Virus record (IMG/VR): IMGVR_UViG_2510065010_000001
Coordinates: 96,001-160,000 of that record
DNA from: a virus
Taxonomy: Duplodnaviria > Caudoviricetes
Length of the DNA stretch: 64,000 bases
Reading direction: 5' to 3' (one strand)
The notes beneath the pieces are model-generated. The model ran no database searches. It was not told the origin of the DNA and was given only the letters and a program-made list of their open reading frames with translations. The first letter of the stretch is position 1. Every line of letters begins with the position of its first letter. Position numbers and translations under genes: made by a program. Of the stretch, positions 1 through 17,370 are shown piece by piece.

Positions 1-2
1 CT

Positions 3-3000
3 GAAAAGCAACTCCGGCAACTGCAAGATTTACAAGAGACTTTAGAAGGGAGTAGAGCTTCAACTTTACGTTTGCTAGACACAGACTTCACCCGCAAAGC
101 GTTGGGCGATCGCCAGCAATTTGAAGGGACAGTAGGTATCGCAATAGGTTCTTTTGCACTTGATGCGACAGAAGCGGTATTGGGACAAAGGTACAACGCA
201 TTAGGTTCAACCCGAAATACTTTAGCTGTCGTTGAAAACCAATTTCGTTTAGTAGAGATGGCACTTAACAGGTCTTCTAAAACAAGTGCAGTTCCAGCTG
301 AACTACAGCAAACGTTAACTAACACCTATGAGTTGACTCGTGCATTAGGTTATAGAACAAATGAAGATCAGGTAAACCAGCAATTCCAGACAGCTCTTGA
401 AGCTGCAGAGCGTAAAACATTAACTCGTCAACAACTTGCAGATCTGAGGGTCCAAACGTTAAGTGCTTTAGCAAACATTCCGGCTGAAAGAGTACAGCAA
501 ACATCTCCAAATGACCTCGACAAGTTATTAAACTTGTCGTCCGGGTCTATCCGTCGAGGTGGTGCCCCCGCTGGCTCTGCCGCTTTAACTGCAGATTCTA
601 ACTTTTATGATGTACTTGATGTTCAGTCACTACAAGCGAGACTCACTAATGAAGGCAGTGGTTTAATACCTGAGTCTGAACGTTTCAAGACAGGAATGCA
701 GGTACCAGCAGTTGGTAGGTTGCTAGCCATGTTAGGTGACTTTGATGGAGATGCTTATCAGTTTTTATTAACTGGAGTAGGTGACCATGCATCTCAACTT
801 TCTCATTTACAGAGAGCAACTCTGCAATTAGGTCAAAAGTTGGGATTTCTCGATAGACAAATTAATCAGACCAATACTCAAGAGTTGCAGCAAGAGCGTC
901 AAGCGGTTCAACAGCAGTTTAACGAAGTTAGTCAACAACTTTCTGAACAAGTACAGAAGGTATCTCAGTTTTCTAGCAATATAGACCGCACTCAAAACAG
1001 AGCGTTAAAAGATGTCCGTAAATGGGTTGGATCTTATCTAGCTTTACCTGACTTTATCACTGATGAACAGAGTTCTCTCTCAACTGGAACTCTGATGAGC
1101 ATGGTTCAGCAAATGAGTGGAACTATGCCACAAATTGAAGATGCTGCACATCATATTAAATATGCGGAAGAACATCTCAGTTTATTAACTAGTGCTTTTG
1201 GTTCGTCAGACTCTCTTACGTCTGACCAGTCGGACCCGTCTAATCCTCAAACTCGAAGTAAAATAAACCAACTTCTCCAACAGAATAACTCTCTTTCAGC
1301 ATCAATGGTCGAGGGAGTTCTTCGTTACGCTAACCAACAAGAGTCTTTCACTTCAGAAGCATTTGAGTCATCAGCTCGTACTTATCTTGCTCTCCAATCA
1401 AATTTGTCTATGACTTTTGAGCAAGTTAATAAATCGATGAAGAAAGCTTCTGGTCTTATTCTCAACCCATTCGATTTTGAAGGATTGCAAGGTGTTATAG
1501 GTCAGGCGGGGACTGAACTAATCGGAAAGACGTACAACGTTTTAGTTCCGTTGCTTGACCAAACAATGTTGGACCAGGCGCTTGTAACTAGTTTGCAAAC
1601 TACAGGACAGTCTTCGTTTAGGTCTGTTATTGACCAAAACTTACAGGCGATGGCTCAAGAATCAACAATTGAAGAAGCAACAGAAATCAATAAACTACGA
1701 CGCAAGCTACTGACAGAAGACCATCAAGGTTTGCAGCAGCAACTTTCAGCTAGATTTAGTGCCGTAACAGGTACTCTTGCTTCTCTCCAACAAATAATTC
1801 GAGATGCTCTGAAAGAAAAATCAGATAAAGGAATTATTAATGTTTTGCGAGAGGCATCCTACGAGGGTAAACCTCTAGCAGAAGCATTAGAAACTGTTGA
1901 AGCTGACTCCCCATTAGAGGCGGATAAAAGAAGAAGTCAGATTCTTAAACAGGCAGTAATGACTCGTATTGGTCCAAACTTGGGAATTGGTTCTGATTCT
2001 CAGGACTATGGTATTACTGGATTTGGAGCTTTATTAAAGCTTTCTGAATTTGCTATGACAGATTCAGATGAGCAGCTGTATGAAAAATTTGTAACAGAAC
2101 CCGGTCTTGAAGATACATATCGTCAGCAAATTAAAGAAGGCAAAGTAAGTAGCGTTAGTGAATTTGCTGCCTCCCAAGTTTTATCTTTAGTAGAAAGAGC
2201 ACAGGCTTCGTTTATTTCAGGGACCTTTTCTTCGTCTACACAAGAGACATTAATAAATCAATTTAGACAGTTTCATAACGATGCTGACCAGTCAAAACTT
2301 TCTCCGGTGAACCATCAGATTTATCAAGTAATCGATGAGTACGAGCAGCAACGACAACAGCTTAGTGACAATTCTGAACTCACTAGACTTAATAACCGTC
2401 TATTGCAAGATACAACCCTAATTCAAATCCAACATCGTAATAAAGAGCAGCAAGTACTTTCTACGAATCAGTTACAGAACCTCCGAGAATTTTATCTAGA
2501 GTCTCAGAAAGTCAGATTTGATGACGGAGACGTTTACTCTAGAATGCTTGGTGCAAACGTTGATACCTACAATTCCTTTTTGAGAATGCTTCAAAGAGGA
2601 CAACAACCTACTGCTCAAGATGCCCTTTATCTTGCAGAGTATAAAATTAATGCTTTGTCAAACATCTATGATGACGAAGCTAATTTAGCGCCTGCTGATC
2701 AGATGAGAGTGGCAAGGTTGATGGGGCTTCGGGCTGGCAGCGGGTTTATATCAGACAGAGAGCAAGCATATCTCGCACAAGCTCTTACCAGAACTTCAAA
2801 AGGTGGAGTGAGTGGCTTACAGTCGCTCCAGTCTAGTACAGCTGCAATGACCCAAGGAGTTTTTCCATTAATTGATGAGTTAGAAAAAGAATTCGAATCA
2901 CCTACACAAGACCGAGCTGATGTTTTACGACAGCAACTAGCCGGACTTTATGAGTATGGAGTTAATGTTGACAAGTTACAAGAAGTTGGGGTTATTAAAA

Positions 3001-3857
3001 CTCCCCACTCTGTAGAACAGACACAAAGACTAGCTCAATCTGCTAGTGAACAACTTAATAAACTAATCTCTCCAGTCGAGGAGCTGGGAGAACGTCCCAT
3101 AGCTCATTCAATCTTGCAACCGGACTCAAGGTTAGAAGCATTAGGGTTATTTGTCGCTCCAGCTTTATTAGCCTTAGCAGGTTCCGATGTCAAATTAGAT
3201 GATCGGGTTGGAATGTTCACCCTAGACGTTTTGCAAGCAACAGCAACTCTAACTAGTAGGTCTGATACTTTAACAGCACAGTTAGCAGGTGGTTCTGCAT
3301 CGTCAAAGGCTGCATTTAATTTTTCTGCAGGACGAGTTCGACAATCTTTAGAGACTGAAGGGTTAGCCGTAGGTGCTGTGCAAGGGCTAATACAAGAGGG
3401 TGTTTTTCAAGGTATTAGTCGAGCTGCCTATTCAACAATTGACCATTTTGCAAACAAATTACCTGGGGGTAAAACAAAAGCAGGTAATGCTATAGCGACT
3501 GTAGCGGCTGAAGCTTTGTCAACAGTTTTATCTTTAGGAATCTCTCGCGCCGTAACAAAACAGCAAACTCGTGGAGAAGAATTTGTCCCAGATCGTATTG
3601 GAGATATTCTGAAAAATGTTACGGAGCAGATCTGGCAAATGGTAGAACAGGCACAGTTAGCAATGTCAGATCCAAATTATGAAGTGTTAGATACTACAGA
3701 AAACCAAAGTATGAACTTTGAAGTTAGTGCTGTTCCTTCCCAGTTTGAACAAGACATTCAATCCGGTTTAATTGTTTTAGATGAAGAAGGTAACCAAATT
3801 GCTACTGAGTTTGAGTCTAGCTCTTCTGAACAAGTTCAACTAGCTGGAAGTTTCTAA
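3..3857 (+). CDS. C-terminal part of a giant virion/ejection-type protein with a putative two-barrel RNA polymerase catalytic motif (5'-truncated)
   Basis: The frame is open from base 3, so the TTG at 72 is not the true start. Contains SIRRGGAP (546-569) and MQVPAVGRLLAMLGDFDGDAY (DFDGD at 738-752). The rest is Q/L/E-rich helical sequence with hydrophobic helices near the C-terminus. The CDS is secure; the function is inferred. Confidence 0.6.
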   Translation, partial: EKQLRQLQDLQETLEGSRASTLRLLDTDFTRKALGDRQQFEGTVGIAIGSFALDATEAVLGQRYNALGSTRNTLAVVENQFRLVEMALNRSSKTSAVPAELQQTLTNTYELTRALGYRTNEDQVNQQFQTALEAAERKTLTRQQLADLRVQTLSALANIPAERVQQTSPNDLDKLLNLSSGSIRRGGAPAGSAALTADSNFYDVLDVQSLQARLTNEGSGLIPESERFKTGMQVPAVGRLLAMLGDFDGDAYQFLLTGVGDHASQLSHLQRATLQLGQKLGFLDRQINQTNTQELQQERQAVQQQFNEVSQQLSEQVQKVSQFSSNIDRTQNRALKDVRKWVGSYLALPDFITDEQSSLSTGTLMSMVQQMSGTMPQIEDAAHHIKYAEEHLSLLTSAFGSSDSLTSDQSDPSNPQTRSKINQLLQQNNSLSASMVEGVLRYANQQESFTSEAFESSARTYLALQSNLSMTFEQVNKSMKKASGLILNPFDFEGLQGVIGQAGTELIGKTYNVLVPLLDQTMLDQALVTSLQTTGQSSFRSVIDQNLQAMAQESTIEEATEINKLRRKLLTEDHQGLQQQLSARFSAVTGTLASLQQIIRDALKEKSDKGIINVLREASYEGKPLAEALETVEADSPLEADKRRSQILKQAVMTRIGPNLGIGSDSQDYGITGFGALLKLSEFAMTDSDEQLYEKFVTEPGLEDTYRQQIKEGKVSSVSEFAASQVLSLVERAQASFISGTFSSSTQETLINQFRQFHNDADQSKLSPVNHQIYQVIDEYEQQRQQLSDNSELTRLNNRLLQDTTLIQIQHRNKEQQVLSTNQLQNLREFYLESQKVRFDDGDVYSRMLGANVDTYNSFLRMLQRGQQPTAQDALYLAEYKINALSNIYDDEANLAPADQMRVARLMGLRAGSGFISDREQAYLAQALTRTSKGGVSGLQSLQSSTAAMTQGVFPLIDELEKEFESPTQDRADVLRQQLAGLYEYGVNVDKLQEVGVIKTPHSVEQTQRLAQSASEQLNKLISPVEELGERPIAHSILQPDSRLEALGLFVAPALLALAGSDVKLDDRVGMFTLDVLQATATLTSRSDTLTAQLAGGSASSKAAFNFSAGRVRQSLETEGLAVGAVQGLIQEGVFQGISRAAYSTIDHFANKLPGGKTKAGNAIATVAAEALSTVLSLGISRAVTKQQTRGEEFVPDRIGDILKNVTEQIWQMVEQAQLAMSDPNYEVLDTTENQSMNFEVSAVPSQFEQDIQSGLIVLDEEGNQIATEFESSSSEQVQLAGSF

Positions 3858-3932: not shown

Positions 3933-4481
3933 ATGTCGAAATCTTCTACTGACAAATTATATCCAAAAGTTTTGCTGCACCACTTATGTGCAATTTCACC
4001 GTATGGTGATCCTTTCGATTTAGAGCGATTTTTGCCCCATCTTAATGAGGCTATGAACGAGTTTGGTATTAACACGCGGTTAAGACAATCTCACTTTTTG
4101 GCACAGATAGCTTACGAAAGTGAAGACTTTGCAAAAACCGAAGGGGGTGATTTTTACTCAGAAGAAGATCTAGGTAATGTTTACCCAGGAGATGAAGAAA
4201 TATTTGCTCCAAGGGGTTTAATAAAATTTTCTGGACGCACCGCCTATGAAGAATTATCTGAAGTTCTGGATGAAAATTTATTAGTTCACCCGCAACGGTT
4301 AGCTGATGAAGATGTTGCTTCTAGAAGTGCCGGGTGGTTTTGGCAAAGAGAAGAGCTAAATTATTCAGCTGATTCCAATGACTTTGACGGTATTGTAAAA
4401 ACCCTTAATCACTTAGATGGGGGTTATGGAGAAAGACGGAAAAAGTTAAACGAAGCAAAGAAAGTTTTTAACATTCAGTGA
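3933..4481 (+). CDS. Glycoside hydrolase family 19 (chitinase-like) endolysin, divergent and acidic
   Basis: HFLAQIAYES, DLGNxxPGD, RGLIKFSGRTAY and SAGWFW match the phage GH19 pattern (FLAQxxHES, RGLIQLTGRxNY, SAxWFW). Confidence 0.8.
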   Translation: MSKSSTDKLYPKVLLHHLCAISPYGDPFDLERFLPHLNEAMNEFGINTRLRQSHFLAQIAYESEDFAKTEGGDFYSEEDLGNVYPGDEEIFAPRGLIKFSGRTAYEELSEVLDENLLVHPQRLADEDVASRSAGWFWQREELNYSADSNDFDGIVKTLNHLDGGYGERRKKLNEAKKVFNIQ

Positions 4482-4505
4482 ACTTAAGCTATAACCCGGT
4501 TTAAG

Positions 4506-4540
4506 TTGAGCACTCAATCAGCTACTTCTACCTATAACTT
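4506..4540 (+). promoter_or_regulatory. Putative late-promoter element (TTGAGCAC...TAACTT)
   Basis: Left half-site plus TANNNT 29 nt downstream; about 25 nt before ATG 4565. Confidence 0.55.
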
Positions 4541-4564
4541 GGCTATGTAGCGCTACTTAGTTTA

Positions 4565-4960
4565 ATGAGTATTCCAGAGAAATTATTTGTTGGTTCGATT
4601 GTAGTGGGTTGGGCAGCAGAGCTTGTTAACCTGTCTTTATCTCACTTTAAGTACAAAAAATTCTTGCCTTACCTGCACAAAATTTTTGTACTAATTGATC
4701 CGATTATCAAATCGAATCTTCCTCATATGTCTTCTAATGACGTGTACAGTTTAGTAGAAAAGGCTGCGATTGCAGTTGCAGACGAAACTTTGTCTCCCAA
4801 AGAAATCTCAGAGTTGGTTTCTACCGTTCTAAAAACTTTCAAGGTTGACTTAGCTGCTAACTCTAACGTTGTAACTCAGACAGACAAACCAATCTCAACA
4901 CAAATTGATGAAGCAATAGACAGATATAAGAACTCTGCAAAAGAGTTATTTAGCTCTTAA
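4565..4960 (+). CDS. Small protein with an N-terminal hydrophobic helix, possible holin or lysis accessory
   Basis: Hydrophobic segment LFVGSIVVGWAAELVNLSL; lies next to the lysin; followed by a terminator. Confidence 0.4.
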   Translation: MSIPEKLFVGSIVVGWAAELVNLSLSHFKYKKFLPYLHKIFVLIDPIIKSNLPHMSSNDVYSLVEKAAIAVADETLSPKEISELVSTVLKTFKVDLAANSNVVTQTDKPISTQIDEAIDRYKNSAKELFSS

Positions 4961-5002
4961 AAAAGTCAAGTTGAACTCTACACATAGCAAAGGTTGAATT
5001 AG

Positions 5003-5027
5003 AACCGGGGTCTGTTCCCCGGTTTTT
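5003..5027 (+). terminator. Rho-independent terminator
   Basis: AACCGGGG-tctgtt-CCCCGGTT stem-loop followed by a T run. Confidence 0.8.
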
Positions 5028-5047
5028 CCGTAAATGCCCAGTTATAT

Positions 5048-5082
5048 GTGAGCACTCAACAGCACTGCATTTGTGGAAGAGT
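5048..5082 (+). promoter_or_regulatory. Putative late-promoter element (GTGAGC-N8-GCACTG-N9-AAGAGT)
   Basis: Shares TGAGCACTCAA (11 nt) with the copy at 4507; lies between the terminator and ATG 5114. Confidence 0.5.
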
Positions 5083-5113
5083 AAAGACGTGAAATTTATG
5101 TCACTTTGTCCTA

Positions 5114-5890
5114 ATGAATACGTTTACACTGCCAGCCGATCGGCTACCATCAAAAGCCTTTTCGTTGAGTTTTAAGGAGCCAACGTTTAGAGATAGAAGA
5201 GAAGTCAGCGCTGCATATCCTACTAAAGAAACACGACCTGGTTATTCTTTAGATGAGTTGTTGTTTGCTACGTCCATTACTGCTGTAAATGGTATAGAAC
5301 TTACTCAGTCTGCACCTCGTGATCCTATCGAGCTGTTGAAAGAAATGCCACAAGCCGATGAACAGTATGCGCTTATGGTCTTTTTATCAATGTTCACTTT
5401 AGATGAAGAGTTGGAAAAAAGCTCTCGTCAACTAGGAACTGCATTTAAGACCTTATTAGACGTGCAGCATACGATCAAAAAGGATCAGATGCCTCGTCAA
5501 AAGTTCAGTGTTACTTTTCGCAAACTAGTTTCTGGACAACGGATGGCACTGGAGCGGCATTATCCTGGACTTGACTCAAACTGTGGTTACTCGTTCGATG
5601 AGATGTTGTTAGCAGCATCAATAACTCATGTAGACGGACATCCGGTTGAACCTGTTAGCAATGCTCGTGACATTATTGGTCGTCTTGATGGCTGGAGTCA
5701 TCTTGACGCACAGTTTGTGTCAAATGTATTTTTGAATGCTGTAACTATTGATAAGCAAGAAGCTCAAGATGCTAAAGACTTGGGAAAGTTACTACTTCAG
5801 GGTACCCAAGAGGAGCTTATTGCCGTTGGTGCTCAAACCTCTGGCAAGCGCGGCAAAGCGTCCTCTCAAGAGTCTGTAACAGCGACTTAA
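5114..5890 (+). CDS. Tail assembly chaperone (gpG-like), internally duplicated
   Basis: Two repeats: FKEPTFRDR..YP..GYSLDELLFATSITAVNG and FRKLVSGQR..YP..GYSFDEMLLAASITHVDG. Slippery site G GGA AAG near the 3' end. Confidence 0.65.
   Translation: MNTFTLPADRLPSKAFSLSFKEPTFRDRREVSAAYPTKETRPGYSLDELLFATSITAVNGIELTQSAPRDPIELLKEMPQADEQYALMVFLSMFTLDEELEKSSRQLGTAFKTLLDVQHTIKKDQMPRQKFSVTFRKLVSGQRMALERHYPGLDSNCGYSFDEMLLAASITHVDGHPVEPVSNARDIIGRLDGWSHLDAQFVSNVFLNAVTIDKQEAQDAKDLGKLLLQGTQEELIAVGAQTSGKRGKASSQESVTAT
5782..5788 (+). other. Programmed -1 ribosomal frameshift site GGGAAAG
   Basis: Identical to the lambda G/T slippery heptamer and in the correct phase (ttG GGA AAG). The -1 frame opens just after TAA 5773-5775 and runs without a stop to 6279. 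Confidence 0.8.
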
Positions 5891-6279
5891 TACCATTAAC
5901 GTACTTTTTGACGCAACAGCTTGAGAAACACTCAATCTGGGAAAAATCCAGTTCCTATCTTGACAATGTTTTAACAGACCAAGATATTGCAAATCTTGTT
6001 TGGCAAAGGGATGATGCCGCCAAAAAACTTTCTCAAAAATTGGGTATAGACGTTTGGGTTTCTGTTAACCAATACGTGACGATCTCATGGGAAACCTGGC
6101 ATGACCTGGACGATTTAACAAAACGTGCAATCGGTCTTGAAATTGAAGCATTAGCACAGGACAAACAGAAAGCTGTGCGAGAGCAAGAAAGCAAATTGGA
6201 AAACTTAATAACTAAAGATTCTTTAGCACTTAAGTTTCCAAATCAAACCAACAGCTCTATCGGTAGGTTCATGAGTTAA
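5788..6279 (+). CDS. gpT-like frameshift extension of the tail assembly chaperone (track ORF 5908..6279)
   Basis: The only start is a weak TTG. The frame is continuous from the slippery site. The predicted fusion is 225 + 163 = 388 aa. Confidence 0.7.
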   Translation, partial: VTTSGYPRGAYCRWCSNLWQARQSVLSRVCNSDLIPLTYFLTQQLEKHSIWEKSSSYLDNVLTDQDIANLVWQRDDAAKKLSQKLGIDVWVSVNQYVTISWETWHDLDDLTKRAIGLEIEALAQDKQKAVREQESKLENLITKDSLALKFPNQTNSSIGRFMS

Positions 6280-6281
6280 TA

Positions 6282-7799
6282 ATGTATCAAGGTCAGAGTA
6301 AAGTTCTGGAACTTGTTGATGTTCCATTTAATCCTAATAGTCGCCCCCGCAACAAGTTAAAACAGCTAGGCGACTACAAGTCCATTGCTGGACACTACAG
6401 ACGACCGATGGCTCAACGTCTGTTGGAATTTGAGCAAATTGCTCTGTTTGACACAACAGTTTCGTATGTTCTCTTTATCCTGATTGACACGTTAATTTCT
6501 CTACTGGGTCCAATTGAGCATCCTGATAAAGAAATTAGGGATTTCCTTAGAGAAAATATTGATGTGCTAGGTGGATTGCCTGGTGCAAAAAATGAAGATG
6601 AGGAAAAGTCTAACAGCGATTTTAAGTCGAGTCAGATTTATCAAGCGCTTTACCGAGCAATACACTGTTCATTGTGGGCTGGGTTTTCAACCTCAGAAGT
6701 TCTTTACACAGTTAATAAAGGGCGACTTTTTATTGAAGATTTTCTAACCTACCACCCGGCAACAATCATAGTGAGACCGAATAAAAAAGGTAGGTTAACA
6801 GAGGGAGAACCTACTCATGAACACCGTCCGTCTGGAATATACCAGCAGACTGGACTGTTAAATTACGCTTCCCCCGGTGAGACGCAGTTACCGTTATGGA
6901 AAACTGTTCATCTTCCCAGACTTTCTTTTTATGGAAACTACTACGGCACTTCCGCAATTGAACCTATTTATAAGTGGCATCTATTAAAAGAAGCTTTCAT
7001 AGACATGCAAGCGATCGCATTAGATCGTAGCGGAACTCCAATTGTTGCCATAACGATTCCAGTGTACAACACCAATCAGACAGAAGTTGACCCAGTTACA
7101 GGAGAAGAACGTCAACTTACAACTCAAGAGATTTTAGAGCGGCAGACTCAAACTCAAAACTTCGGTGGAGGTGGAAACCTATTACTTTTGCCTCAGTTTG
7201 ATGAAAAGTTACCTCCTAAAGCCCAAGTACTAACATCAGGCTCAAACGTCGGTGAATCTTTCGAAATTGGGATTGATCGATGTGACAGAGAACTTGCAAA
7301 AGGATTGTGGGTACCTTTTGTGTTATTTCCCTTTGGCAATAGGGTTGAAGGAATGTCTGATACTTATCGGGCAATGGAACTCTTTAACCGCATAATAGTT
7401 AATCTTCACAGGCAGTTTATCCACCCATTAGTCTCACAAAGTTTTCATCAATGTGTAAAGCAGAATTTTAGTAGAGAATCCGCAAACATTGCCCCTTGGT
7501 TTCCAATACGGCAAACCACCCGACCAGAAGACCGTGTGGCATTGATGCAAATGATTTCAGGTTTAACTGACCGTGGTTACTTTAATCCTCTTAACGACCA
7601 AGATTGGCTAATGGTGCGTGAGATGGTAGATGCAATATCTCGTGCGCCAAATGATGTTGACCGCAAATTTATTAATGACATGATTATTGTGCCTAAGCAA
7701 CCTGCACCGGGCGGTTCCTCTAAAGGTTCAGTTAGAGGTAAAGGTGTAGGAGCCGGAAGACCAACGGGAACTTCAGCTCCTAAATCCAATAAGAGTTAA
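6282..7799 (+). CDS. Portal protein (Mu gp29/DUF935-like)
   Basis: GFSxxEVxY, GNYYGxSxIxPIYxxxxxK and DRxGxP motifs; 505 aa; lies upstream of the protease and capsid genes. Confidence 0.8.
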   Translation: MYQGQSKVLELVDVPFNPNSRPRNKLKQLGDYKSIAGHYRRPMAQRLLEFEQIALFDTTVSYVLFILIDTLISLLGPIEHPDKEIRDFLRENIDVLGGLPGAKNEDEEKSNSDFKSSQIYQALYRAIHCSLWAGFSTSEVLYTVNKGRLFIEDFLTYHPATIIVRPNKKGRLTEGEPTHEHRPSGIYQQTGLLNYASPGETQLPLWKTVHLPRLSFYGNYYGTSAIEPIYKWHLLKEAFIDMQAIALDRSGTPIVAITIPVYNTNQTEVDPVTGEERQLTTQEILERQTQTQNFGGGGNLLLLPQFDEKLPPKAQVLTSGSNVGESFEIGIDRCDRELAKGLWVPFVLFPFGNRVEGMSDTYRAMELFNRIIVNLHRQFIHPLVSQSFHQCVKQNFSRESANIAPWFPIRQTTRPEDRVALMQMISGLTDRGYFNPLNDQDWLMVREMVDAISRAPNDVDRKFINDMIIVPKQPAPGGSSKGSVRGKGVGAGRPTGTSAPKSNKS

Positions 7800-8407
7800 A
7801 CCATCTTTGCAGTATCTTGGAAGGCAAGCCGATCACTTAAATAGTAGTCCACTATTTTTAAGTGTATGCACTTAAACCCTGGAACATACTTCCCTACTTC
7901 AATAAATTGCTGACAATCACAATGATTTGGAGTACATCGTCTTCGTGCCCCAGACGGAGTGTTAATTATGATATGCGACCCAATTAATTCCGTTATAGTG
8001 TAGCCTTCATAAACTGCTCGTGCTACTAAAAGTAAATCGTAGTGCTCTTGAACATTTGCAATCGCCCTTAATTTTTTCTGCTTCTTTTTACCTCTAAACC
8101 AGTAGAGGAGTAACCAATCATCCCCAGTTTCAATTAAAGATGCTGACTCCATAGCGGTTAAGAAGCTTTCCGCTAAAACAAGTCTTACAAAGCATTCTTC
8201 AAAATCTTCTAAGCTCTTTCCTTTTAAAGACGCAGATATTTGATAGCGTCTTGCATATTCTTTCCAATTGTCTGGTAGTGGCAAGCTTAGTTTTTTACCG
8301 TCTTGCAAGATCACTTGCATCGTGTCTTGTGTTACTTCGGTTTTTGTAATGGATAAAGAATCCTGTAAATGTTCTAAGACTAAAAGGGTAGCTAACGAGT
8401 AATCCAC
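7796..8407 (-). CDS. SWIM zinc-finger protein
   Basis: C-terminal CDC-x13-CIH matches the SWIM CxC...CxH pattern; convergent with the portal gene (4-nt overlap). Confidence 0.65.
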   Translation of the reverse strand: MDYSLATLLVLEHLQDSLSITKTEVTQDTMQVILQDGKKLSLPLPDNWKEYARRYQISASLKGKSLEDFEECFVRLVLAESFLTAMESASLIETGDDWLLLYWFRGKKKQKKLRAIANVQEHYDLLLVARAVYEGYTITELIGSHIIINTPSGARRRCTPNHCDCQQFIEVGKYVPGFKCIHLKIVDYYLSDRLAFQDTAKMV

Positions 8408-8448
8408 GTAACCTTTAACTCCGAAGTATTGCTATAACGCCATTAAAA

Positions 8449-8482
8449 TTGAGCAGCCTTGCGCTCTTGATTTCCCTAAAGT
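8449..8482 (+). promoter_or_regulatory. Putative late promoter (TTGAGC-N8-GCTCTT-N8-TAAAGT)
   Basis: GAGC/GCTC dyad; near-identical to the 17291 copy (ttgagcagccttgcgctc vs ttgaacacccttgcgttc); precedes the head operon. Confidence 0.65.
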
Positions 8483-8510
8483 GTTAGAGAGAAATAAATC
8501 TCCCTAACTT

Positions 8511-10289
8511 ATGATTTCTGACAGCCAGCTGATTGCTGACTTGGTGATGAATAGTGTTAATGTCAAGCCTGACCTTATGGAAATACAGGCTGGACAACCT
8601 GTAAACCAAGTTGTTAATCAAACACCACAACCACAATCTTTGTCTCTGCCGGATGAAGTACTTACTGTAGCATCTACAGATAAGCTAAATAGTACTATAA
8701 ATGTTGACGCTCAAACACATCTAAGTCACGAATCTGATTCGGAAAAATTATCTATTTCGATTGGTGGTCATTGGTCGGATAGTAACAGCCAGTTAGCAGG
8801 CAACTTTCCGTTTTCTAAAATGTGGAGAGCTGCAAGATTTATCTCATGTGTCTTGTCAGAAGCGTCTGATTCTAAGTACCACCGTCTTTCTCTTGCTCTA
8901 AATTCCAGCGATGATAGTTCAGACTCAGACTGGGTTGTAACAGCTAATTTCAAGTATGAGTCGGAAGTTTCAGATACAGAGCTTTTGTTAGCTCACTATG
9001 CTAGCTATATTCATTTAAGAATCGGAGCTTTGCCTAGTTACTACGACGAGTACTACGCAAATCCTACTTCTCAGAATCAAGATGAACTTAATAAGTTAGC
9101 TGAATCTCTTCGATCCGATGCTATTAAACTGACTCAAAAAACTGAAGATGAGAGTTTCACCTGGGTTCAGAAATTAGCCGGACAACCTTTGGGCGTAGAC
9201 TCTTCCAAACGACTTATTAAGGTTCCATTCTGTGTTCTCGGCTCTTGGAGCCATCCGGTTTATGAAACGGTTAGTTTCACACAGAATGACTTTGACAACA
9301 TGAAGCAAAACTTTGCCAATGGTGAAGTTGGGTTTGAACCCCCCTTATTTCTAGGTCATCCGATTGATACGGATACTATGGAGGGTCATGCTGCAGAAGC
9401 CTTCTTACAAGAAATTGTTCAGGAAGGGAACGTACTTAGCGGCATCTTCGAGACGGTTTCTGACGAAACATATGCAGCGGTAGCGTTAGGGCGCTACCGC
9501 TATAGCAGTGGTGAGTTCATAAGAAATTGGCAGTCAAAGAGTAACGGTAAATCTGTTGGTACTGTGCTGATTGGAGTAGCACTAACAAATAGACCATTCT
9601 TGCCAAATTTGCCTCGCGTGAGTGCCCTGTCTGCTCCTTTGGAGTCTAGGGTGTCTCTAACTTTTCAACTTACAAACCCAGATTTAGTCCAACATATGAC
9701 TACCCAAACTTCTCCTGAAAAGCAACAGGAGCAGACATCTGTTGCTGCTTCACAACCCGTTCAATCGCCTTCACCAACACAAACACAGGACTTGTCAATG
9801 ACAACAGAACTTGAACAGTTCAAGAACTTAGTAAACCAACAGTTTACAGATCTTAAACAGTCTTACACACAACAGTTTGAAGCTCAAAAGCAGGAATTGG
9901 CGGCAGCTATTGCTCGTCTTACAACTGCAGAAGCCGAAAAGCAAGATTTAGCTACACGTCTTGCTGCAGCTGAAGAAAAGTTAAAAGCAACAGAAGTAAA
10001 CGCCAAACTTGCTGAGCTTGAAGCTTTGACCTTACCTGTTGAAGTGAAAGAGAAGTATAGCGAACTCATCAAGAACGGAACCCTTGGTGAGCAAGAGTCT
10101 GTTGTGATGGAAACGCTCAAACAGATGAGCCTTACTCGTGTGCAAGAAGCGACTACTCAACACGGGACTGTCACTGCAACACAAGCACTCAATGATCCAA
10201 ACGTTCAAGACCCTTATGCCTCAGTAATTGAGCGTAACCAACAGCTTGCAAAAGCCAAAGAAAAAGCGTTGATGTCTTTGCTTAGCTAA
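8511..10289 (+). CDS. Prohead protease plus scaffold (Mu gpI/gpZ-like) with a long N-terminal extension
   Basis: PPLFLGH, YRYSSGEF and GVALTNRPFL are Mu-type protease motifs. C-terminal coiled coil. Directly upstream of the capsid gene. Confidence 0.8.
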   Translation: MISDSQLIADLVMNSVNVKPDLMEIQAGQPVNQVVNQTPQPQSLSLPDEVLTVASTDKLNSTINVDAQTHLSHESDSEKLSISIGGHWSDSNSQLAGNFPFSKMWRAARFISCVLSEASDSKYHRLSLALNSSDDSSDSDWVVTANFKYESEVSDTELLLAHYASYIHLRIGALPSYYDEYYANPTSQNQDELNKLAESLRSDAIKLTQKTEDESFTWVQKLAGQPLGVDSSKRLIKVPFCVLGSWSHPVYETVSFTQNDFDNMKQNFANGEVGFEPPLFLGHPIDTDTMEGHAAEAFLQEIVQEGNVLSGIFETVSDETYAAVALGRYRYSSGEFIRNWQSKSNGKSVGTVLIGVALTNRPFLPNLPRVSALSAPLESRVSLTFQLTNPDLVQHMTTQTSPEKQQEQTSVAASQPVQSPSPTQTQDLSMTTELEQFKNLVNQQFTDLKQSYTQQFEAQKQELAAAIARLTTAEAEKQDLATRLAAAEEKLKATEVNAKLAELEALTLPVEVKEKYSELIKNGTLGEQESVVMETLKQMSLTRVQEATTQHGTVTATQALNDPNVQDPYASVIERNQQLAKAKEKALMSLLS

Positions 10290-10341
10290 TTTTTTTAATT
10301 CCGTAACCGTTCCCAGCGTACTAATTCCTGACTGATAAATT

Positions 10342-11652
10342 ATGGTAACAACTATTCAGCCGACGACAACTCCCTATGAATATGTGGGTGATGTGCCTGC
10401 ACTAGGGTCTTTGCAGCTAACTCGTTTAGCTAAATCATTTGAAGAAATAGACTCCCAAGGATTAGAAGATCTTTTTCCAACCGTTCAGTCTGAAGAGCGT
10501 ACTGTCGTTATTGAGACGATGCGTGAAGGTTTAGGAATTATGCCTATCGTTCAGATGGGTGTTCCTGCCGGAAACTTCCTAGAACCTGAGCGTGTAGAAA
10601 GACGTTACGTTCAACCCGTATTTTTGCGGGAAGACGATTTCGTTGACCAGGCGTTGATTAACCAACTTCGTAAGGTTGGAACTCTCAATGAAAAAGATCC
10701 TCCTTTACAGATTATTCAGCGTCGTGTTCAGCGACTAGTTAATCGCCACAACCGGACTCGAAATTTGCTGCAAGCAATGTGCTTACAGGGAGGTATTAAC
10801 TACACGGACCCTCGCACAAAAGCCACAATTAACGTTAGTACTCAAATTCCCACGCACAACTACTTCCGATACGACGGGTGGGATGCAACTCTAGCTTCTG
10901 GTGCTGCGATTGGCACTACTGGCTACGTTGCAGCTAAAAACTTGACGAACAACAAAGGACGTAAGGAAGCATTACTGTTTACAGATAAATCTGGTCGGGC
11001 GGGTGTTCCCTGGTCCCACCCACAAGCAGATCTAGTCCGGTGCTTACGTTTTCTACGACAGTATTGCTACAACAGCAACAAAGTGTTGCTCACGGACATG
11101 GTTATGTCCCGTGATTTGTACACTGTCATTCAAGAGAACGAAATCATTCAAGCTCAGATGGGTAGCGTCGGAGTCATAACGGTTCCAGGTGGAACAAACG
11201 GGGCAGTTAATGAAATTGCAGCAGCTTCGTCTCGTGTAACACCTCCAAGTATCCGCTTTGACAGTGCTGGAGATGTTCAGTCGATTGCAGGGTTGAACAT
11301 TCGTCTGATCGACTCAATGTATCGAGATCCTGTCGATAATGTCATTAAAAAGATGTGGCCATCTAACTTGGTGGCTGTGATTGCTAGATCACATCATCAA
11401 GACCGTAGTGCATCTCTTGGTCAGACAATGGAACCAGTTGGAGAATCTCCAGATGGAACTGCAGGTCTGTGGATGCGTACTGGTCCTGACCAAATGCCAC
11501 CTGCTGTACCTGGTAGAGCAATGCAGCTTGGCAACTGCTTCCTCCCATACGTAACTTATCCTCAGTGGATTATGTTACTGACCGTTGCCGATACCGGAAT
11601 GATCGATGAAACTCTCATCTTGCGTTCTGACCTTGAATACGGCACGTTCTAG
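10342..11652 (+). CDS. Major capsid protein (HK97 fold, gpE-like)
   Basis: 436 aa following the protease/scaffold; LFP..GIMPIVxxGxP N-terminal pattern and C-terminal LPxV..P pattern of gpE-type capsid proteins. Confidence 0.8.
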   Translation: MVTTIQPTTTPYEYVGDVPALGSLQLTRLAKSFEEIDSQGLEDLFPTVQSEERTVVIETMREGLGIMPIVQMGVPAGNFLEPERVERRYVQPVFLREDDFVDQALINQLRKVGTLNEKDPPLQIIQRRVQRLVNRHNRTRNLLQAMCLQGGINYTDPRTKATINVSTQIPTHNYFRYDGWDATLASGAAIGTTGYVAAKNLTNNKGRKEALLFTDKSGRAGVPWSHPQADLVRCLRFLRQYCYNSNKVLLTDMVMSRDLYTVIQENEIIQAQMGSVGVITVPGGTNGAVNEIAAASSRVTPPSIRFDSAGDVQSIAGLNIRLIDSMYRDPVDNVIKKMWPSNLVAVIARSHHQDRSASLGQTMEPVGESPDGTAGLWMRTGPDQMPPAVPGRAMQLGNCFLPYVTYPQWIMLLTVADTGMIDETLILRSDLEYGTF

Positions 11653-11687
11653 TTTTAATAAGCATTTGGAAATTTAGGAGATTATTA

Positions 11688-12389
11688 ATGAGTGCCACAT
11701 CAGGACAACGGTTTGATTATCAGGCATACACTGAGGGTCAGCGTGGTGGTCTGAGTCTTTATCCGTACTGCGGAATTATTAACGGTTTACAAGTCAGTAC
11801 CGTTGCTATCGCAGGTACAGGCAACGTGAACTTGACAATGAACGTGTCAGCGGGTGCTGCAAGACTTGATGGACAATACTGTTCACTAGCTGCTGGAATT
11901 ACGACTTTGGTTCTTCCAGTAGGATTAGACTTAAACGTAGGCGACTACACATTTAATGTTTGGCTGAACGCAAGACGCCTGGTTCCTGCACAAGCTTCTG
12001 CGCCAGGTGCGCCTGCTACAAATGATAAATACATCAAGGTAGTAGATAAAGGGTCATATCTAGAGGTAGATGATATTCTCTACTACACTGGAAGTGTGTG
12101 GGCTAAATATAACGCTATATCAGGACCCCCTGCATTGCAAGGACATAACAACCTTCCTCTTAACGAGGTCAATGCGACCATCCACAACGCAACATCCAGT
12201 AACCAATCTTTTGCACTCACAGCAGAAAAGCCTGTTTACCACAAGACAAATTATCCTGTGGGTTTATCATCACCTGGAGCCGCTTACTTAAGACAGCCAG
12301 CAGCCATAAAAATTGCGACAATTAATATCGCTAACGGCGGTACTATCACGTCTACCATTTATGGTGATGAAGTTCGCATTCCAATTTAG
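11688..12389 (+). CDS. Probable capsid decoration/cement protein
   Basis: Directly after the capsid gene, strong AGGAG RBS, G/A/T-rich beta sequence (GLQV..VSAGAARLDG). Confidence 0.5.
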   Translation: MSATSGQRFDYQAYTEGQRGGLSLYPYCGIINGLQVSTVAIAGTGNVNLTMNVSAGAARLDGQYCSLAAGITTLVLPVGLDLNVGDYTFNVWLNARRLVPAQASAPGAPATNDKYIKVVDKGSYLEVDDILYYTGSVWAKYNAISGPPALQGHNNLPLNEVNATIHNATSSNQSFALTAEKPVYHKTNYPVGLSSPGAAYLRQPAAIKIATINIANGGTITSTIYGDEVRIPI

Positions 12390-12409
12390 TAAGTTAATAA
12401 GTAACCACT

Positions 12410-12910
12410 ATGACCACATATAGATTTTTAGTTAAAACACAAACGTCTGTTATTGTAAACGGTCAGCGTCGAACGTTTAACTCAGTCGGAGAAGTTGCAG
12501 AGTTTCCTGAAGACATTGGGCGTTTAATTCAACAACGACAAGTCTCTGGTAGTGAACACCTTGATTTTATTGGGTTTCACCCACCAGATGATTCAGTTAT
12601 TCCTCTATCGGCTCCAACTACTCCTACTACTGATGAATTAAATGTCAACGAGGAAGAGGAGGAAGAGAAAAACATTGAAGAAGAGGAGCAAAGTCTAGAT
12701 GCTGACGAAGATAAATCATCTGGATCAGATGATCAGACTATCATAATTCCTTTAGATGCCAATGCTCATTGGAGTACTGTTCGTTCCTTCGTTTTAGACA
12801 TGGAACAAGAGGAACAGTATGAGATGATTGCAGCAGTTAAAGCCGCATATGACTATCCAAAGGTTAAAGAAGAGTGCGATCGTATCTTGAAGAAAGCTGG
12901 TCGTATTTAA
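12410..12910 (+). CDS. Hypothetical head-associated protein with an acidic linker
   Basis: Last gene of the head operon; poly-Glu tract between two small domains. Confidence 0.55.
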   Translation: MTTYRFLVKTQTSVIVNGQRRTFNSVGEVAEFPEDIGRLIQQRQVSGSEHLDFIGFHPPDDSVIPLSAPTTPTTDELNVNEEEEEEKNIEEEEQSLDADEDKSSGSDDQTIIIPLDANAHWSTVRSFVLDMEQEEQYEMIAAVKAAYDYPKVKEECDRILKKAGRI

Positions 12911-12940
12911 CATACTCGTACTTCAGCGACCGACTAAGCT
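12906..12940 (+). promoter_or_regulatory. Possible late-promoter element (TTTAACAT...TAAGCT)
   Basis: Degenerate half-site with TANNNT at the same 29-nt offset; about 22 nt before ATG 12962. Confidence 0.35.
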
Positions 12941-12959
12941 TAAATTTGGTCGGTTTTTT
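12928..12959 (+). terminator. Rho-independent terminator closing the head operon
   Basis: GACCGACTAA...TTGGTCGGTT imperfect stem followed by a T run. Confidence 0.6.
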
Positions 12960-12961
12960 AA

Positions 12962-14575
12962 ATGGATTTTACTGACAGATTTATTATTGCAACACCTGCT
13001 CTTTCTGGCGTGGACTTAGAAACACTAACAGATGAACAGCTGGAAACACTTTCTCCGCCTGTCAAAGATTTTTCTAGGATGGTGCGGGAGTACTCTGCAC
13101 TGCTTTCTAGAAAAGGTTCTAAAAGTATCTATTTAATATGCACAGAGCAGGTAGACCCACGAATTGCTCTGGTTTTAGCTGGTGCAAGAGATAAAGTAGG
13201 TGTCAGATTGTTTCCAGACTTAAACTCTGTTAAACAAGTAATGTTTGGGAAAACGGACCCTTCTGAATCGGCATTTGTCAATGCTGAACGTAACATGTTT
13301 ACACAAGGGGTTCGGCGTATTGCGGCTGCTCTAACGGCTGCTTTATTAATTGGACAACTTGCTCAAATCGAAGAGCAAGCAAAACATTCTGAGTTTTTAG
13401 AAAAATCAGCCTTAGCTGACCTTCAACGACTTCTAGAAGTCCCGGACATTGCTGTTGCTACAGCACAAAAACTAGAAGGTGAAGGAGAAGTCAAGTCTTT
13501 TTTCTTTCAGCCATTTTCTTTGGAGTTAGGTTCTAGAATTCTTCGAGCAGAATTCTTCATGCCATCGACAACTACATCGACTTGGCAGATAGTTAACAAC
13601 TATACGGGTAAATTTACTACTGCAAGAATCGTTGCAGATCTAGCTGATGCGATTAACTCTTACACTCTCACCCAACAAACGAGCAATATCATCGCAGCTC
13701 CTATCCTTGGTGACGAAAGTACACTCTACAAAATTGAATTTAAGGCGAGACACCGAGATGCCTCTATCGCCTGTGAAGTCATTACGGCAAGGTTTACATT
13801 TACCGACAATCCCAATGAACCTCTCCCATTCAAATGGGGAGTTAGTCCAGCCGGATTAAACGACCAGTTTATCAACTCGTTACTTTTAGCTGTTCAACAA
13901 GGAAAAGCATCGGTTGTTGGTGTCACTGCAGCAGATAGAGAGCGTGGCGAACCAACTGTTTTGTACTTCAAACGAGCACCTAAAAACTCTAACGGAGATA
14001 TTCTGGACTATGAAGGGGACGTAATTTCTTCCTCTATTTGGGGTGCTCAAGGTAATCTTACATTCCGAGTCTCACCCATGATGGATGAGAATGTAACTCT
14101 GCCTGTGCCTTACCTGACAAATGTTGATGCTATTCAACAAACAAAGTTAGATGCTATGCGTCCAAATCAGGTGGCAGAGCTGTTATTAAATCAGTTATTT
14201 CAGATTAAAGGGGACACGTTGGCGTTAGGGGCGTTGATAAGAAATGACTATCCAGACAATATCAACGCGCTAGTTGCCTTAGAATTAATACCTTTCTCAG
14301 TGACCAATCCAGAAGCCTGGTTAATTTTAGATTTAATTGATATTCCACAGGATATTTTGGTTGCTGTAGGAAATCTACAAGCACCGTTAACACCCTTTAG
14401 TTCTAAACCTCGTTCTGTTCGCGTGGAGTCCAAATTTTACGCTGCGCTTGCTCAAAATATTCGGACTACGAATCAACAAGTAACTGCAGTTCCTAAAGTG
14501 GTTAAGTCTCCTATTTCTGACAGGTTGCAAGCAGTTAGAGATGACTCCACTTATAGAGTCTTACGCAGACTATGA
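12962..14575 (+). CDS. Virion structural protein, probable head-tail adaptor/neck
   Basis: Position between head and sheath genes; helical N-terminus and beta-rich remainder. No diagnostic motif recognised. Confidence 0.45.
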   Translation: MDFTDRFIIATPALSGVDLETLTDEQLETLSPPVKDFSRMVREYSALLSRKGSKSIYLICTEQVDPRIALVLAGARDKVGVRLFPDLNSVKQVMFGKTDPSESAFVNAERNMFTQGVRRIAAALTAALLIGQLAQIEEQAKHSEFLEKSALADLQRLLEVPDIAVATAQKLEGEGEVKSFFFQPFSLELGSRILRAEFFMPSTTTSTWQIVNNYTGKFTTARIVADLADAINSYTLTQQTSNIIAAPILGDESTLYKIEFKARHRDASIACEVITARFTFTDNPNEPLPFKWGVSPAGLNDQFINSLLLAVQQGKASVVGVTAADRERGEPTVLYFKRAPKNSNGDILDYEGDVISSSIWGAQGNLTFRVSPMMDENVTLPVPYLTNVDAIQQTKLDAMRPNQVAELLLNQLFQIKGDTLALGALIRNDYPDNINALVALELIPFSVTNPEAWLILDLIDIPQDILVAVGNLQAPLTPFSSKPRSVRVESKFYAALAQNIRTTNQQVTAVPKVVKSPISDRLQAVRDDSTYRVLRRL

Positions 14576-15447
14576 CACGTATTTTTCCCACGCCACGACA
14601 ACTTGTTTTGGGCACGATCGTTGCCCTAGCAAGTCACCCACGAATACAAAATCCGGGTATATATTACATTGGTAGCAACACGGAAGAAAAGATAGTTTCG
14701 TGGAGGTCTTATGGTGGCTACGAACTAGAGGAAGAAGGGCTGGTTTGTTCAGTTTATCCAGCATACTCATCGAGAACGACGGCTGGTTCTGCACCCCCAT
14801 TAGGAAAACAAAAATCTATCCAAATAGAACCATACAATTTAGGTTCTAGAATGGATGCTTCTTCGCTAGAACAAGGCACTTACAACTTAATTGTGGAGCT
14901 TTCATACCGAGATGCTAACTTAGGAGAAATCGTTAAATTAGGCTACGATTTTATTCAATCTACGGATGGAATTCCTCCACTAAATACACCTCACGGCACT
15001 AATGTGATGCCGCACGAAGGAACTTCACTTAATTTAGCTTCAGAAGATTTAACTGCTTTTCAAGCAGAACCGCAAGGGTTGCAACGTCAGTTTCAAACTG
15101 TAGAAATTAAAGTCAGTCCGGCAGAAGAGTTGCTAAGAGAGTACACAGAATTATTACGTTTGGTGTTAAACGATATACCACATATTCGCCCTTACACAAT
15201 TCGCTCTTCGAGAGTCGTAACTATTGATTTTCCTACATCTGCTTGGACAAGAGAATCTGAAGATCTTTTGTTCCACACAGCGTATATTCATTGGGAACTA
15301 ACTTTGTATCCTCCCGGAAGCTGGAAGGATGTTTACTTTATGCCTGTGACTTCGATTTCTGCAACAGCTCAATCGGAGCAGCAGCAAATATTATCTCCTT
15401 ACTATTACGTTCAATTAGGGGATGGGACTAATCTAAGAATTCTTTGA
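14572..15447 (+). CDS. Probable neck/tail-completion (terminator) protein
   Basis: ATGA-coupled to the previous gene; position before the sheath; alpha/beta pattern. Confidence 0.45.
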   Translation: MTRIFPTPRQLVLGTIVALASHPRIQNPGIYYIGSNTEEKIVSWRSYGGYELEEEGLVCSVYPAYSSRTTAGSAPPLGKQKSIQIEPYNLGSRMDASSLEQGTYNLIVELSYRDANLGEIVKLGYDFIQSTDGIPPLNTPHGTNVMPHEGTSLNLASEDLTAFQAEPQGLQRQFQTVEIKVSPAEELLREYTELLRLVLNDIPHIRPYTIRSSRVVTIDFPTSAWTRESEDLLFHTAYIHWELTLYPPGSWKDVYFMPVTSISATAQSEQQQILSPYYYVQLGDGTNLRIL

Positions 15448-15455
15448 GGTCTAAA

Positions 15456-17276: not shown

Positions 17277-17290
17277 AAGTTAATCCCAGA

Positions 17291-17325
17291 TTGAACACCC
17301 TTGCGTTCAAACCTACAGTTACAGT
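17291..17325 (+). promoter_or_regulatory. Putative late promoter with a perfect dyad (TTGAAC-N8-GTTCAA-N9-TACAGT)
   Basis: Best copy of the motif; upstream of the sheath and tube genes. Confidence 0.7.
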
Positions 17326-17370
17326 GCTGATTAAAGTGCTCTAAGAATCCCCGCACTATTATTTGGCACT

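Follow-up and report, generated by a model that had tools for sequence, protein, structure and literature searches.

A putative, highly diverged single-chain two-barrel RNA polymerase within a giant protein of a cyanobacterial prophage and of Ma-LMM01-like cyanomyoviruses

The window analyzed here, a 64,000-nucleotide stretch of the virus record IMGVR_UViG_2510065010_000001 (positions 96,001 to 160,000 of that record), corresponds to positions 714804-778803 of a genome on a single 5.53-Mb contig, and it opens within a giant gene whose product is proposed to contain an RNA polymerase (RNAP). The open reading frame (ORF) that carries the motif DFDGD lies in frame 3 of the + strand and is open from the first bases of the window to position 3857. 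The complete gene occupies genome positions 708725-718660, with its ATG at 708725 (6,078 nt to the left of the first window position), and it comprises 3,311 codons, the last 1,284 of which are in the window; the frame was judged to be intact because the closest homologues are of similar length (3,217-3,363 amino acids [aa]). The surrounding element is a myovirus-type prophage in a cyanobacterial chromosome, as indicated by the endolysin, Mu-like portal, protease/scaffold, capsid, and tail sheath genes downstream of the giant gene. In the host genome, rpoC1 is split in the cyanobacterial manner (open frame of 631 aa; match to PF00623, 1.2e-28). The first-pass annotation, which had been made from the window sequence, included neither the N-terminal PLD domain of the giant protein nor the prophage state of the element with its second, small, split two-barrel polymerase-like gene pair. 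The features of the giant gene, its product, and its surroundings are collected in Table 1.

Table 1. Features of the giant gene, conserved residues of its product, and neighboring prophage genes (window positions unless a genome or L040 position is indicated; fractions are family sequences that keep the residue)
Feature	Residues (aa)	Position	Strand	Remark
Giant gene, 3' part		1-3857	+	1,284 codons plus stop
PLD/HKD domain, N-terminal	211-439	genome 709355-710041 (left of window)		
Beta/Rpb2-like module	780-1460	genome 711062-713104 (left of window)		first barrel: D1090-x4-N1095, R1293-x7-K1301-G-P
Beta'/Rpb1-like catalytic barrel (DPBB-A), predicted	~2055-2295	84-806	+	
First barrel motif RKALGDRQQFEGTVGIAIGSF		93-155	+	R-K-A-L-G-D-R-x4-G-x-V-x-I-A; G2069 invariant in family
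Helical insert in DPBB-A	~2089-2204	186-533	+	helical in AlphaFold2 model (residues 150-265)
R2212-G-G-A-P2216-A-G, NRAP-element counterpart of beta'		555-575	+	model strand ends at R2212
G-D-F-D-G-D loop, predicted to bind metal	D2273/D2275/D2277	735-752; DFDGD 738-752	+	loop before model strand 339-344
Long helical hairpin 3' of barrel	2286-2373	777-1040	+	model helices 347-378, 381-434
Conserved block G2527..G2530..G2535..Y2538-N2539..P-L-L-D	2527-2546	1500-1559	+	low pLDDT in model
Conserved helix Q-Q-x-x-R2627-D2628-x-x-K2631-x-K	2623-2633	1788-1820	+	model helix 666-692
Conserved C-terminal region	two moderately hydrophobic segments, 3069-3092 and 3189-3208	3126-3545	+	conserved G3075, P3080, Q3105, E3159
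Conserved residue	R990			104/104
Conserved residue	D1090			104/104
Conserved residue	N1095			103/104
Conserved residue	R1293			102/103
Conserved residue	K1301			102/103
Conserved residue	K1345			102/102
Conserved residue	R2212			124/125
Conserved residue	P2216			114/126
Conserved residues	D2273, D2275, G2276, D2277			128/128 each
Conserved residue	G2535			129/129
Conserved residue	Y2538			126/129
Conserved residue	N2539			128/129
Conserved residues	R2627, D2628, K2631			128/128 each
Downstream virion module		3933-20190	+	linkage to giant gene conserved in related loci
Endolysin		3933-4481	+	
Overlapping ORF pair	258 and 123	5114-6279	+	between endolysin and portal
Portal (Mu-like)		6282-7799	+	
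Protease/scaffold		8511-10289	+	
Major capsid protein		10342-11652	+	
Tail sheath		17371-20190	+	
Upstream ORF pair	1,109 and 377	genome 697747-702255 (L040 12747-17255)	-	~12.5-17 kb left of window
PIF1-type helicase		L040 10800-12674		beyond 377-aa ORF

The three strings in which the first-pass annotation had seen the active site of a two-barrel polymerase, RKALGDRQQFEGTVGIAIGSF, RGGAPAG, and DFDGD, were all present in the giant ORF, the last of them at exactly the stated position, and the insert between the motifs that had been described as helical was also helical in the AlphaFold2 model. Across the family, the first motif had the consensus RQAxGDRxxxxGxSxIA, which parallels RQNLLGKRVDYSGRSVI of the host RpoC1; this likeness was at the level of the motif only (hhalign probability, 0.18% at the motif). 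The occurrence of the word D.DGD alone is weak evidence, because such a word also arose in 501 (2.5%) of 20,000 versions of the protein shuffled with composition preserved. On the 3' side of the predicted barrel, the long helical hairpin matched generic coiled coils only, and two further conserved elements may, as a guess, be counterparts of parts of beta', the block at aa 2527-2546 being trigger-loop-like and the helix around R2627 being bridge-helix-like. Loose structural alignments of the aa 1940-2700 model extended to about residue 795 of Escherichia coli beta' (root mean square deviation [rmsd], about 20 Å). The terminal hydrophobic helices of the first-pass annotation were recognizable as two moderately hydrophobic stretches near the C terminus (Kyte-Doolittle 19-residue maximum, about 1.6); the last 250 residues of the protein were conserved. 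Left of the window, the N-terminal domain contained two HxK...G-S/T-x-N motifs, with H211, K213, H417, K419, G436, S437, and N439 invariant in 14 of 14 proteins, and it matched Pfam PLDc_2 with an E value of 6.5e-6 and 26.5 bits, just below the 27-bit cutoff. The least conserved stretch of the giant protein was found between the two barrels, at aa ~1460-1940.

Two segments of the protein were folded separately with AlphaFold2, without templates, from alignments of 44 and 37 rows. The model of aa 1940-2700 (mean predicted local distance difference test [pLDDT] score, 73.1; predicted template modeling [pTM] score, 0.47) had strands at model residues 130-138, 145-148, 268-273, 289-293, 319-323, and 339-344, and the aspartates of DFDGD were in the loop that leads into the last of these strands. 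Among the Foldseek matches listed for this model in the PDB, 45 of 48 were the largest subunits of RNAPs (bacterial beta', Pol I/II, AR9, and PhiKZ), the best being 1iw7_D (E, 0.053; probability, 0.91). The best BFVD match was a piece of gp080 of Microcystis phage Ma-LMM01 (E, 1e-4), and the next were phage models labeled “DNA-directed RNA polymerase” (probability, 0.97-0.98), interspersed with tape-measure rows of low probability. For the model of aa 780-1460 (mean pLDDT, 79.2; pTM, 0.75), 43 of the 49 Foldseek matches listed were second-largest subunits (Pol II/III, archaeal, vaccinia, and bacterial beta), and the best matches were 8iue_B (E, 1.2e-3) and 7a6h_B (probability, 0.98). Wider searches of PDB structures were taken up, for the 761-residue model, by helical hairpins of a generic kind aligned to model residues 344-434 and, for the 681-residue model, mostly by helical matches of 41 to 69 residues, nearly all of them on residues 589-636; in the latter search, RNAP rows alone spanned the domain. 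According to the two models, a beta-like barrel at aa ~1040-1350 precedes a beta'-like barrel at aa ~2055-2295 along the protein, and a double-psi beta-barrel (DPBB) order of DPBB-B before DPBB-A is the one described for single-chain two-barrel enzymes (PMC10770324). The region around DFDGD was modeled as a beta'-type barrel and not as a calcium-binding loop, and the second, lysine-bearing barrel, which had been expected to lie left of the window, was predicted there, with R1293-x7-K1301-G.

A word-indexed search with aa 1950-2700 yielded 14 proteins including the query (3,217-4,900 aa; identity, 68% to 25%), and GD[FY]DGD was present in all 14. When a profile of aa 1940-2700 was compared with 1.84 billion representatives, 118 proteins were retrieved at an E value of ≤1e-3 (114 at ≤1e-10 and 87 at ≤1e-30), nearly all of them 3,000-5,400 aa in length, and no tail of known polymerases was found among the matches. 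The D.DGD word occurred in 118 of 125 stored family proteins, and the 7 proteins without it were fragments of 64-1,193 aa. Related DNA was found in 11 IMG/VR contigs (18-216 kb), 12 metagenome contigs, and 2 contigs of metagenome-assembled genomes (MAGs). A family member with 26% identity over aa 1919-3310 was encoded by JBDGRN010000100.1, a contig of 7,843 bp from the MAG bin of a Halobacteria archaeon; the sequence is more likely to be of phage origin and to have strayed into the bin than to represent an archaeal gene.

Residue conservation was counted in 137 pooled family sequences aligned to hidden Markov models (HMMs) of the modules, each count being taken over those sequences that have a residue at the position concerned; for the DxDGD columns, 135 sequences were aligned, 7 of which were gapped there. 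The counts indicate constraint rather than independent events, because the sequences are related to one another and some also served to build the HMMs. Every family sequence with residues at the DxDGD columns kept the motif, and the R..P element noted in the first-pass annotation was likewise present and conserved, although its spacing is R-x3-P instead of the canonical R-x-P. Eight residues are reported to be invariant in two-barrel RNAPs, namely R446, P448, and the DxDxD triad of Rpb1 and D837, K979, and K987 of Rpb2 (Ruprich-Robert and Thuriaux, PMC2919709), and the QDE-1 counterparts given in the same source are R738, K743, R962, and P964. The giant family has near-invariant candidates for all eight of these signature residues. 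R2212 and P2216 lie upstream of the aspartate triad; the candidate for Rpb2 D837 is found in D1090-x4-N1095, for which the host RpoB motif to compare is N-Y-E-D-A-I-L-I-S; and the putative basic pair, R1293 and K1301, has a spacing of 8 that is identical to that of K979 and K987 and to that of K-M-A-G-R-H-G-N-K in the host RpoB, with Gly in the next position, as in RpoB. Interpolation from the ranges of the structural alignments would place model residue 522 near residue ~987 of Rpb2.

The DFDGD stretch is best explained as the catalytic center of a highly diverged single-chain two-barrel (beta/beta') RNAP that takes up the middle 1,900 residues of the giant protein, a reading to which a probability of roughly 0.7 is assigned. 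The main argument for it is that separately folded segments pick out different RNAP subunits in the expected order, together with the residue pattern, and the very divergent single-chain two-barrel RNAP that had been proposed from the window alone is supported by the invariant motif, the beta'-type barrel modeled around it, and the upstream beta-type barrel with its basic pair. Homology to two-barrel RNAPs is very probable, and the protein is probably an active polymerase. Packaging in the virion and delivery with the genome, which are suggested by the gene position and by analogy with other phages, have about even odds, and the same considerations suggest that the C-terminal ~1,000 residues may be delivery domains. 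Judged from sequences and models, the giant proteins appear to constitute a new, Pfam-invisible family of PLD-fused, single-chain two-barrel polymerases and a core gene of Ma-LMM01-like cyanomyoviruses.

In such an enzyme, the beta-like barrel would supply D1090, R1293, and K1301, and a connector of ~700 residues would join it to the beta'-like barrel, which would supply R2212 and P2216 and in which D2273, D2275, and D2277 would coordinate the catalytic Mg2+. Downstream of the second barrel would come additional conserved helices, with the PLD/HKD phosphodiesterase-type domain in front of the polymerase and the conserved C-terminal region and its two hydrophobic segments behind it. The giant protein would polymerize RNA on DNA and, again with about even odds, would be synthesized alongside the head proteins, packaged, and then ejected together with the genome. 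The ejected polymerase would then start transcription independently of the host polymerase, and its targets might include the second, small, split two-barrel polymerase-like operon 12 kb upstream; the sole basis for this hand-over is that a virion polymerase combined with a smaller non-virion polymerase is the arrangement of Thermus phage P23-45. The complete scenario, in which the capsids of Ma-LMM01-type cyanomyoviruses and of their prophage relatives contain a PLD-RNAP fusion of 3,200-5,400 residues that is ejected with the DNA, transcribes independently of the host, and in this prophage hands over to the split polymerase, is put forward tentatively, at somewhat less than even odds.

Several results weigh against the polymerase interpretation. 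No sequence or profile method tied the giant protein to an RNAP family beyond the motifs. Pfam gave no polymerase match for the whole protein, the part in the window, or 12 family members, and PF00623 was not matched even at an E value of ≤10; across the whole genome, the host rpoC1 was the sole match to PF00623. PDB searches by phmmer and hmmsearch with the protein and both module profiles returned coiled-coil or chance rows only, and the ESM Atlas contained no usable match for either barrel. By hhalign, the family and the host RpoC1 aligned over 8 columns overlapping DFDGD with a probability of 0.39%, and deeper, roughly formatted alignments gave probabilities of ≤0.5% against RpoC1 and a single RpoB. 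No Foldseek match in the PDB reached an E value of ≤0.001 for either segment, the scores all being moderate, and the pLDDT was about 55-87 around the catalytic loop and ~62 for the loop itself. The barrels were modeled apart, so their packing into one active site lies outside the models. Neither QDE-1 nor phi14:2 gp66 nor P23-45 gp96 or gp64 was among the structural matches listed, and the same was true of YonO and PolD; the models were long, and whole segments were used as queries. The R-x3-P spacing noted above is a further departure from the canonical pattern, and the early, middle, and late promoters of Ma-LMM01 have been assigned to the host SigA in a transcriptome study in which no phage polymerase is named (PMC5780444). 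Two-barrel families are often without significant sequence similarity outside the DxDxD region (PMC10770324). The silence of the profiles is therefore expected from such divergence, which does not make it evidence in favor of a polymerase. In PHROGs, the sole match was phrog_31006, of unknown function (E, 1.2e-15), whose profile of 3,562 positions has the length of gp080.

The fold and the signature residues define the superfamily only, and the giant protein could be a true two-barrel polymerase that is not delivered by the virion: a non-virion RNAP, a QDE-1-like RNA-dependent RNA polymerase, a primase-like enzyme, or a PolD-like DNA polymerase. PolD is described as sharing both barrels (PMC10770324), and Ma-LMM01 promoters of all classes are reported to be SigA-like (PMC5780444). 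This alternative is unlikely, however, for a gene that is fixed beside head-morphogenesis genes in 16-18 of 26 loci and for a product whose giant size and extra domains resemble those of known virion RNAPs (that of N4, with ~3,500 aa, phi14:2 gp66, and P23-45 gp96, as described). Moreover, the separate small RNAP-like gene pair of the prophage already fits a non-virion role, and PolD chains were not among the structural matches listed. It is still less probable that the protein has a structural or ejection function, as an internal head protein or a tape-measure-like scaffold, and that its polymerase-like fold is a noncatalytic relic. Long helices make up much of the protein, and weak BFVD matches included tape-measure and minor tail proteins (probability, 0.05-0.85), but the tape-measure-like rows align through helices, at rmsd values of 25-45 Å, and the metal triad and the basic pair are near-invariant in more than 100 sequences among which identity has fallen to about 20%. 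Such near-invariance would be hard to explain without catalysis, which argues against a relic. A tape-measure role in itself was rejected, because the gene precedes the head genes and the rows that resemble tape measures are helix matches of low probability.

Scarcely credible is the remaining explanation, that DFDGD is a chance word or a calcium-binding loop of the EF-hand or FG-GAP kind and that the likeness to RNAPs is an artifact of low-confidence models. The frequency of the word in shuffled sequences, the moderate structural scores, and the silent sequence profiles are compatible with it, but two independent models of different segments singled out different RNAP subunits in the right order, DFDGD is flanked by strands as in beta', and DxDGD was kept in all 128 sequences counted. 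In addition, DFDGD is unrepeated, whereas calcium-binding repeats would recur. The calcium-loop reading was rejected on these grounds, and a two-barrel RNAP remained the preferred interpretation of the motif.

Matches among cultured phages comprised nine records, all of them from Microcystis phages of the Ma-LMM01/MaMV group. Ma-LMM01 gp080 (YP_851094.1; 3,562 aa; annotated as “hypothetical protein”) was found to be a full-length member of the giant family, with orthologues in MaMV. It matched the family HMMs of the beta'-like, beta-like, and PLD modules with E values of 5e-66, 2e-38, and 1e-9, respectively, it carries R-S-P-P-P-G...G-D-F-D-G-D, and its gene adjoins portal, protease, and major head genes. 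The differences are that identity was ~29% in the best tblastn piece, that Ma-LMM01 is a lytic 162-kb phage and not a prophage, and that the gene is divergent from the head genes. In UniProt and BFVD, gp080 is named by its PLD phosphodiesterase domain only and has no polymerase annotation.

The virion RNAP of coliphage N4 is a T7-like right-hand polymerase with an unrelated fold. It nevertheless provides an analogy of lifestyle and size, being a protein of ~3,500 aa that is described as capsid-borne, ejected, and responsible for transcription of early genes (PMC13434306). Closer in architecture is Thermus phage P23-45, in which, according to PMC10770324, the two-barrel RNAP gp96 is part of a giant, tape-measure-fused virion protein, a second, smaller two-barrel RNAP (gp64) is a non-virion enzyme, and the domain order is DPBB-B, connector, DPBB-A, and then helices. 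Unlike the polymerase of gp96, which is N-terminal, that of the giant protein would be central, its carrier is not a recognizable tape measure, and a PLD domain is located in front of it; no sequence similarity to gp96 or gp64 was found. The crAss-like phage protein phi14:2 gp66 (2,180 aa; PDB 6VR4), which is described as packaged in the virion and ejected (10.1101/2020.03.07.982082), and Neurospora crassa QDE-1 are both large single-chain two-barrel enzymes with DxDxD, and in QDE-1 the first residue of the basic pair is reported to be Arg (PMC2919709), like R1293 of the giant protein. There was no detectable sequence relation to gp66 or QDE-1; the fold matches listed were multisubunit beta/beta'-type chains, and the motif is DxDGD, as in cellular enzymes. 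YonO of the Bacillus subtilis prophage SPbeta is a further single-chain two-barrel RNAP encoded by a prophage, with very distant homology to cellular RNAPs (PMC5467207); by its description, it is set apart as a protein of about 100 kDa that is unfused and is not presented as a virion protein. The best fold matches of both modules were cellular and jumbo-phage multisubunit beta and beta' chains, a group that includes the host RpoB and RpoC1 and the non-virion RNAPs of AR9 and PhiKZ. With these, the giant protein shares the motif order RQ..G.R....G.S.I, R..P, and DFDGD and, in the other barrel, K/R-x7-K-G; it differs from them in having one chain instead of two or more, no PF00623 match, large helical inserts, and R-x3-P.

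In the literature searched, which excluded the 23-family supplement of PMC10770324, no report was found that names the giant family a polymerase or describes such an enzyme in a cyanomyovirus, in line with the first-pass annotation, whose author knew of none. The genome of MaMV-DH01, a close relative of Ma-LMM01, has been described as being without an RNA polymerase, and mass spectrometry of virions is said still to be needed (PMC9927357); the searches yielded no proteome of a related phage. Single-chain two-barrel RNAPs are rare and fast-evolving and inform both the origin of the cellular transcription machinery and the escape of phages from dependence on the host. The family described here is invisible to Pfam and to profiles and is a core gene of a lineage of large cyanophages that includes Ma-LMM01, which serves as the model phage for toxic Microcystis blooms. 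Should the enzyme prove to be active and carried in virions, the first stages of infection by Ma-LMM01-like phages will have to be reinterpreted. The proposal, if true, would overturn the published view of these bloom-controlling phages as polymerase-free and wholly reliant on the host SigA (PMC5780444, PMC9927357), and virion polymerases would gain, in the PLD domain, a new type of partner and with it a new architecture. The idea is directly testable because a cultured phage carries a family member.

As had been noted from the window, the giant gene is located beside the structural module of the phage, with the endolysin, portal, protease/scaffold, major capsid, and tail sheath genes directly downstream. 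A neighborhood scan of 26 related loci, including Ma-LMM01 and covering the fetched flanks, identified a homologue of the ORF pair between endolysin and portal beside the giant gene in 18 loci, a portal gene in the fetched flank in 16, and a capsid protein gene in 12. In eight loci, four of which were on contigs under 8 kb, there was no homologue of any neighbor query. In most phages, the head module was divergent from the giant gene; it was co-directional with the gene in this prophage and in the two relatives closest to it. The first member of the ORF pair was found beside the giant gene in 18 of the 26 loci and both members were found in 13, and the frames there often overlapped by ~100 nt.

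The ORF pair upstream of the giant gene, on the opposite strand, resembles a small two-barrel RNAP that has been split within the catalytic barrel, to judge from the motifs of its 377-aa member, which contains S-R-A-P near its start (...M-S-R-A-P...) and G-D-C-D-G-D at residue 65. An unsplit frame of 1,445 aa in the viral contig L004 matched the 377-aa piece at 1.4e-98, and matches to it were also located inside other giant frames (3,923 and 4,195 aa) in two other viral contigs. The 377-aa protein had no match by tblastn in cultured phages, and the Ma-LMM01 record and one 216-kb viral contig were likewise negative.

A second giant ORF in the window (40661-56515, + strand; 5,284 aa) had HxK...GSxN-like strings in its N-terminal part and a weak match to the PLD-module HMM (E, 0.0014); it contained no D.DGD word, and there was no Pfam match in its first 3,000 aa. 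The left arm of the prophage included, at L040 6493-7716 on the - strand, a 408-aa ORF with a MerR-type helix-turn-helix and a Cas12f1/TnpB-like zinc-ribbon domain. In Ma-LMM01, gp064 (L039 25334-28465; a large ORF of 5,022 nt) adjoins the published early-gene window gp054-gp063.

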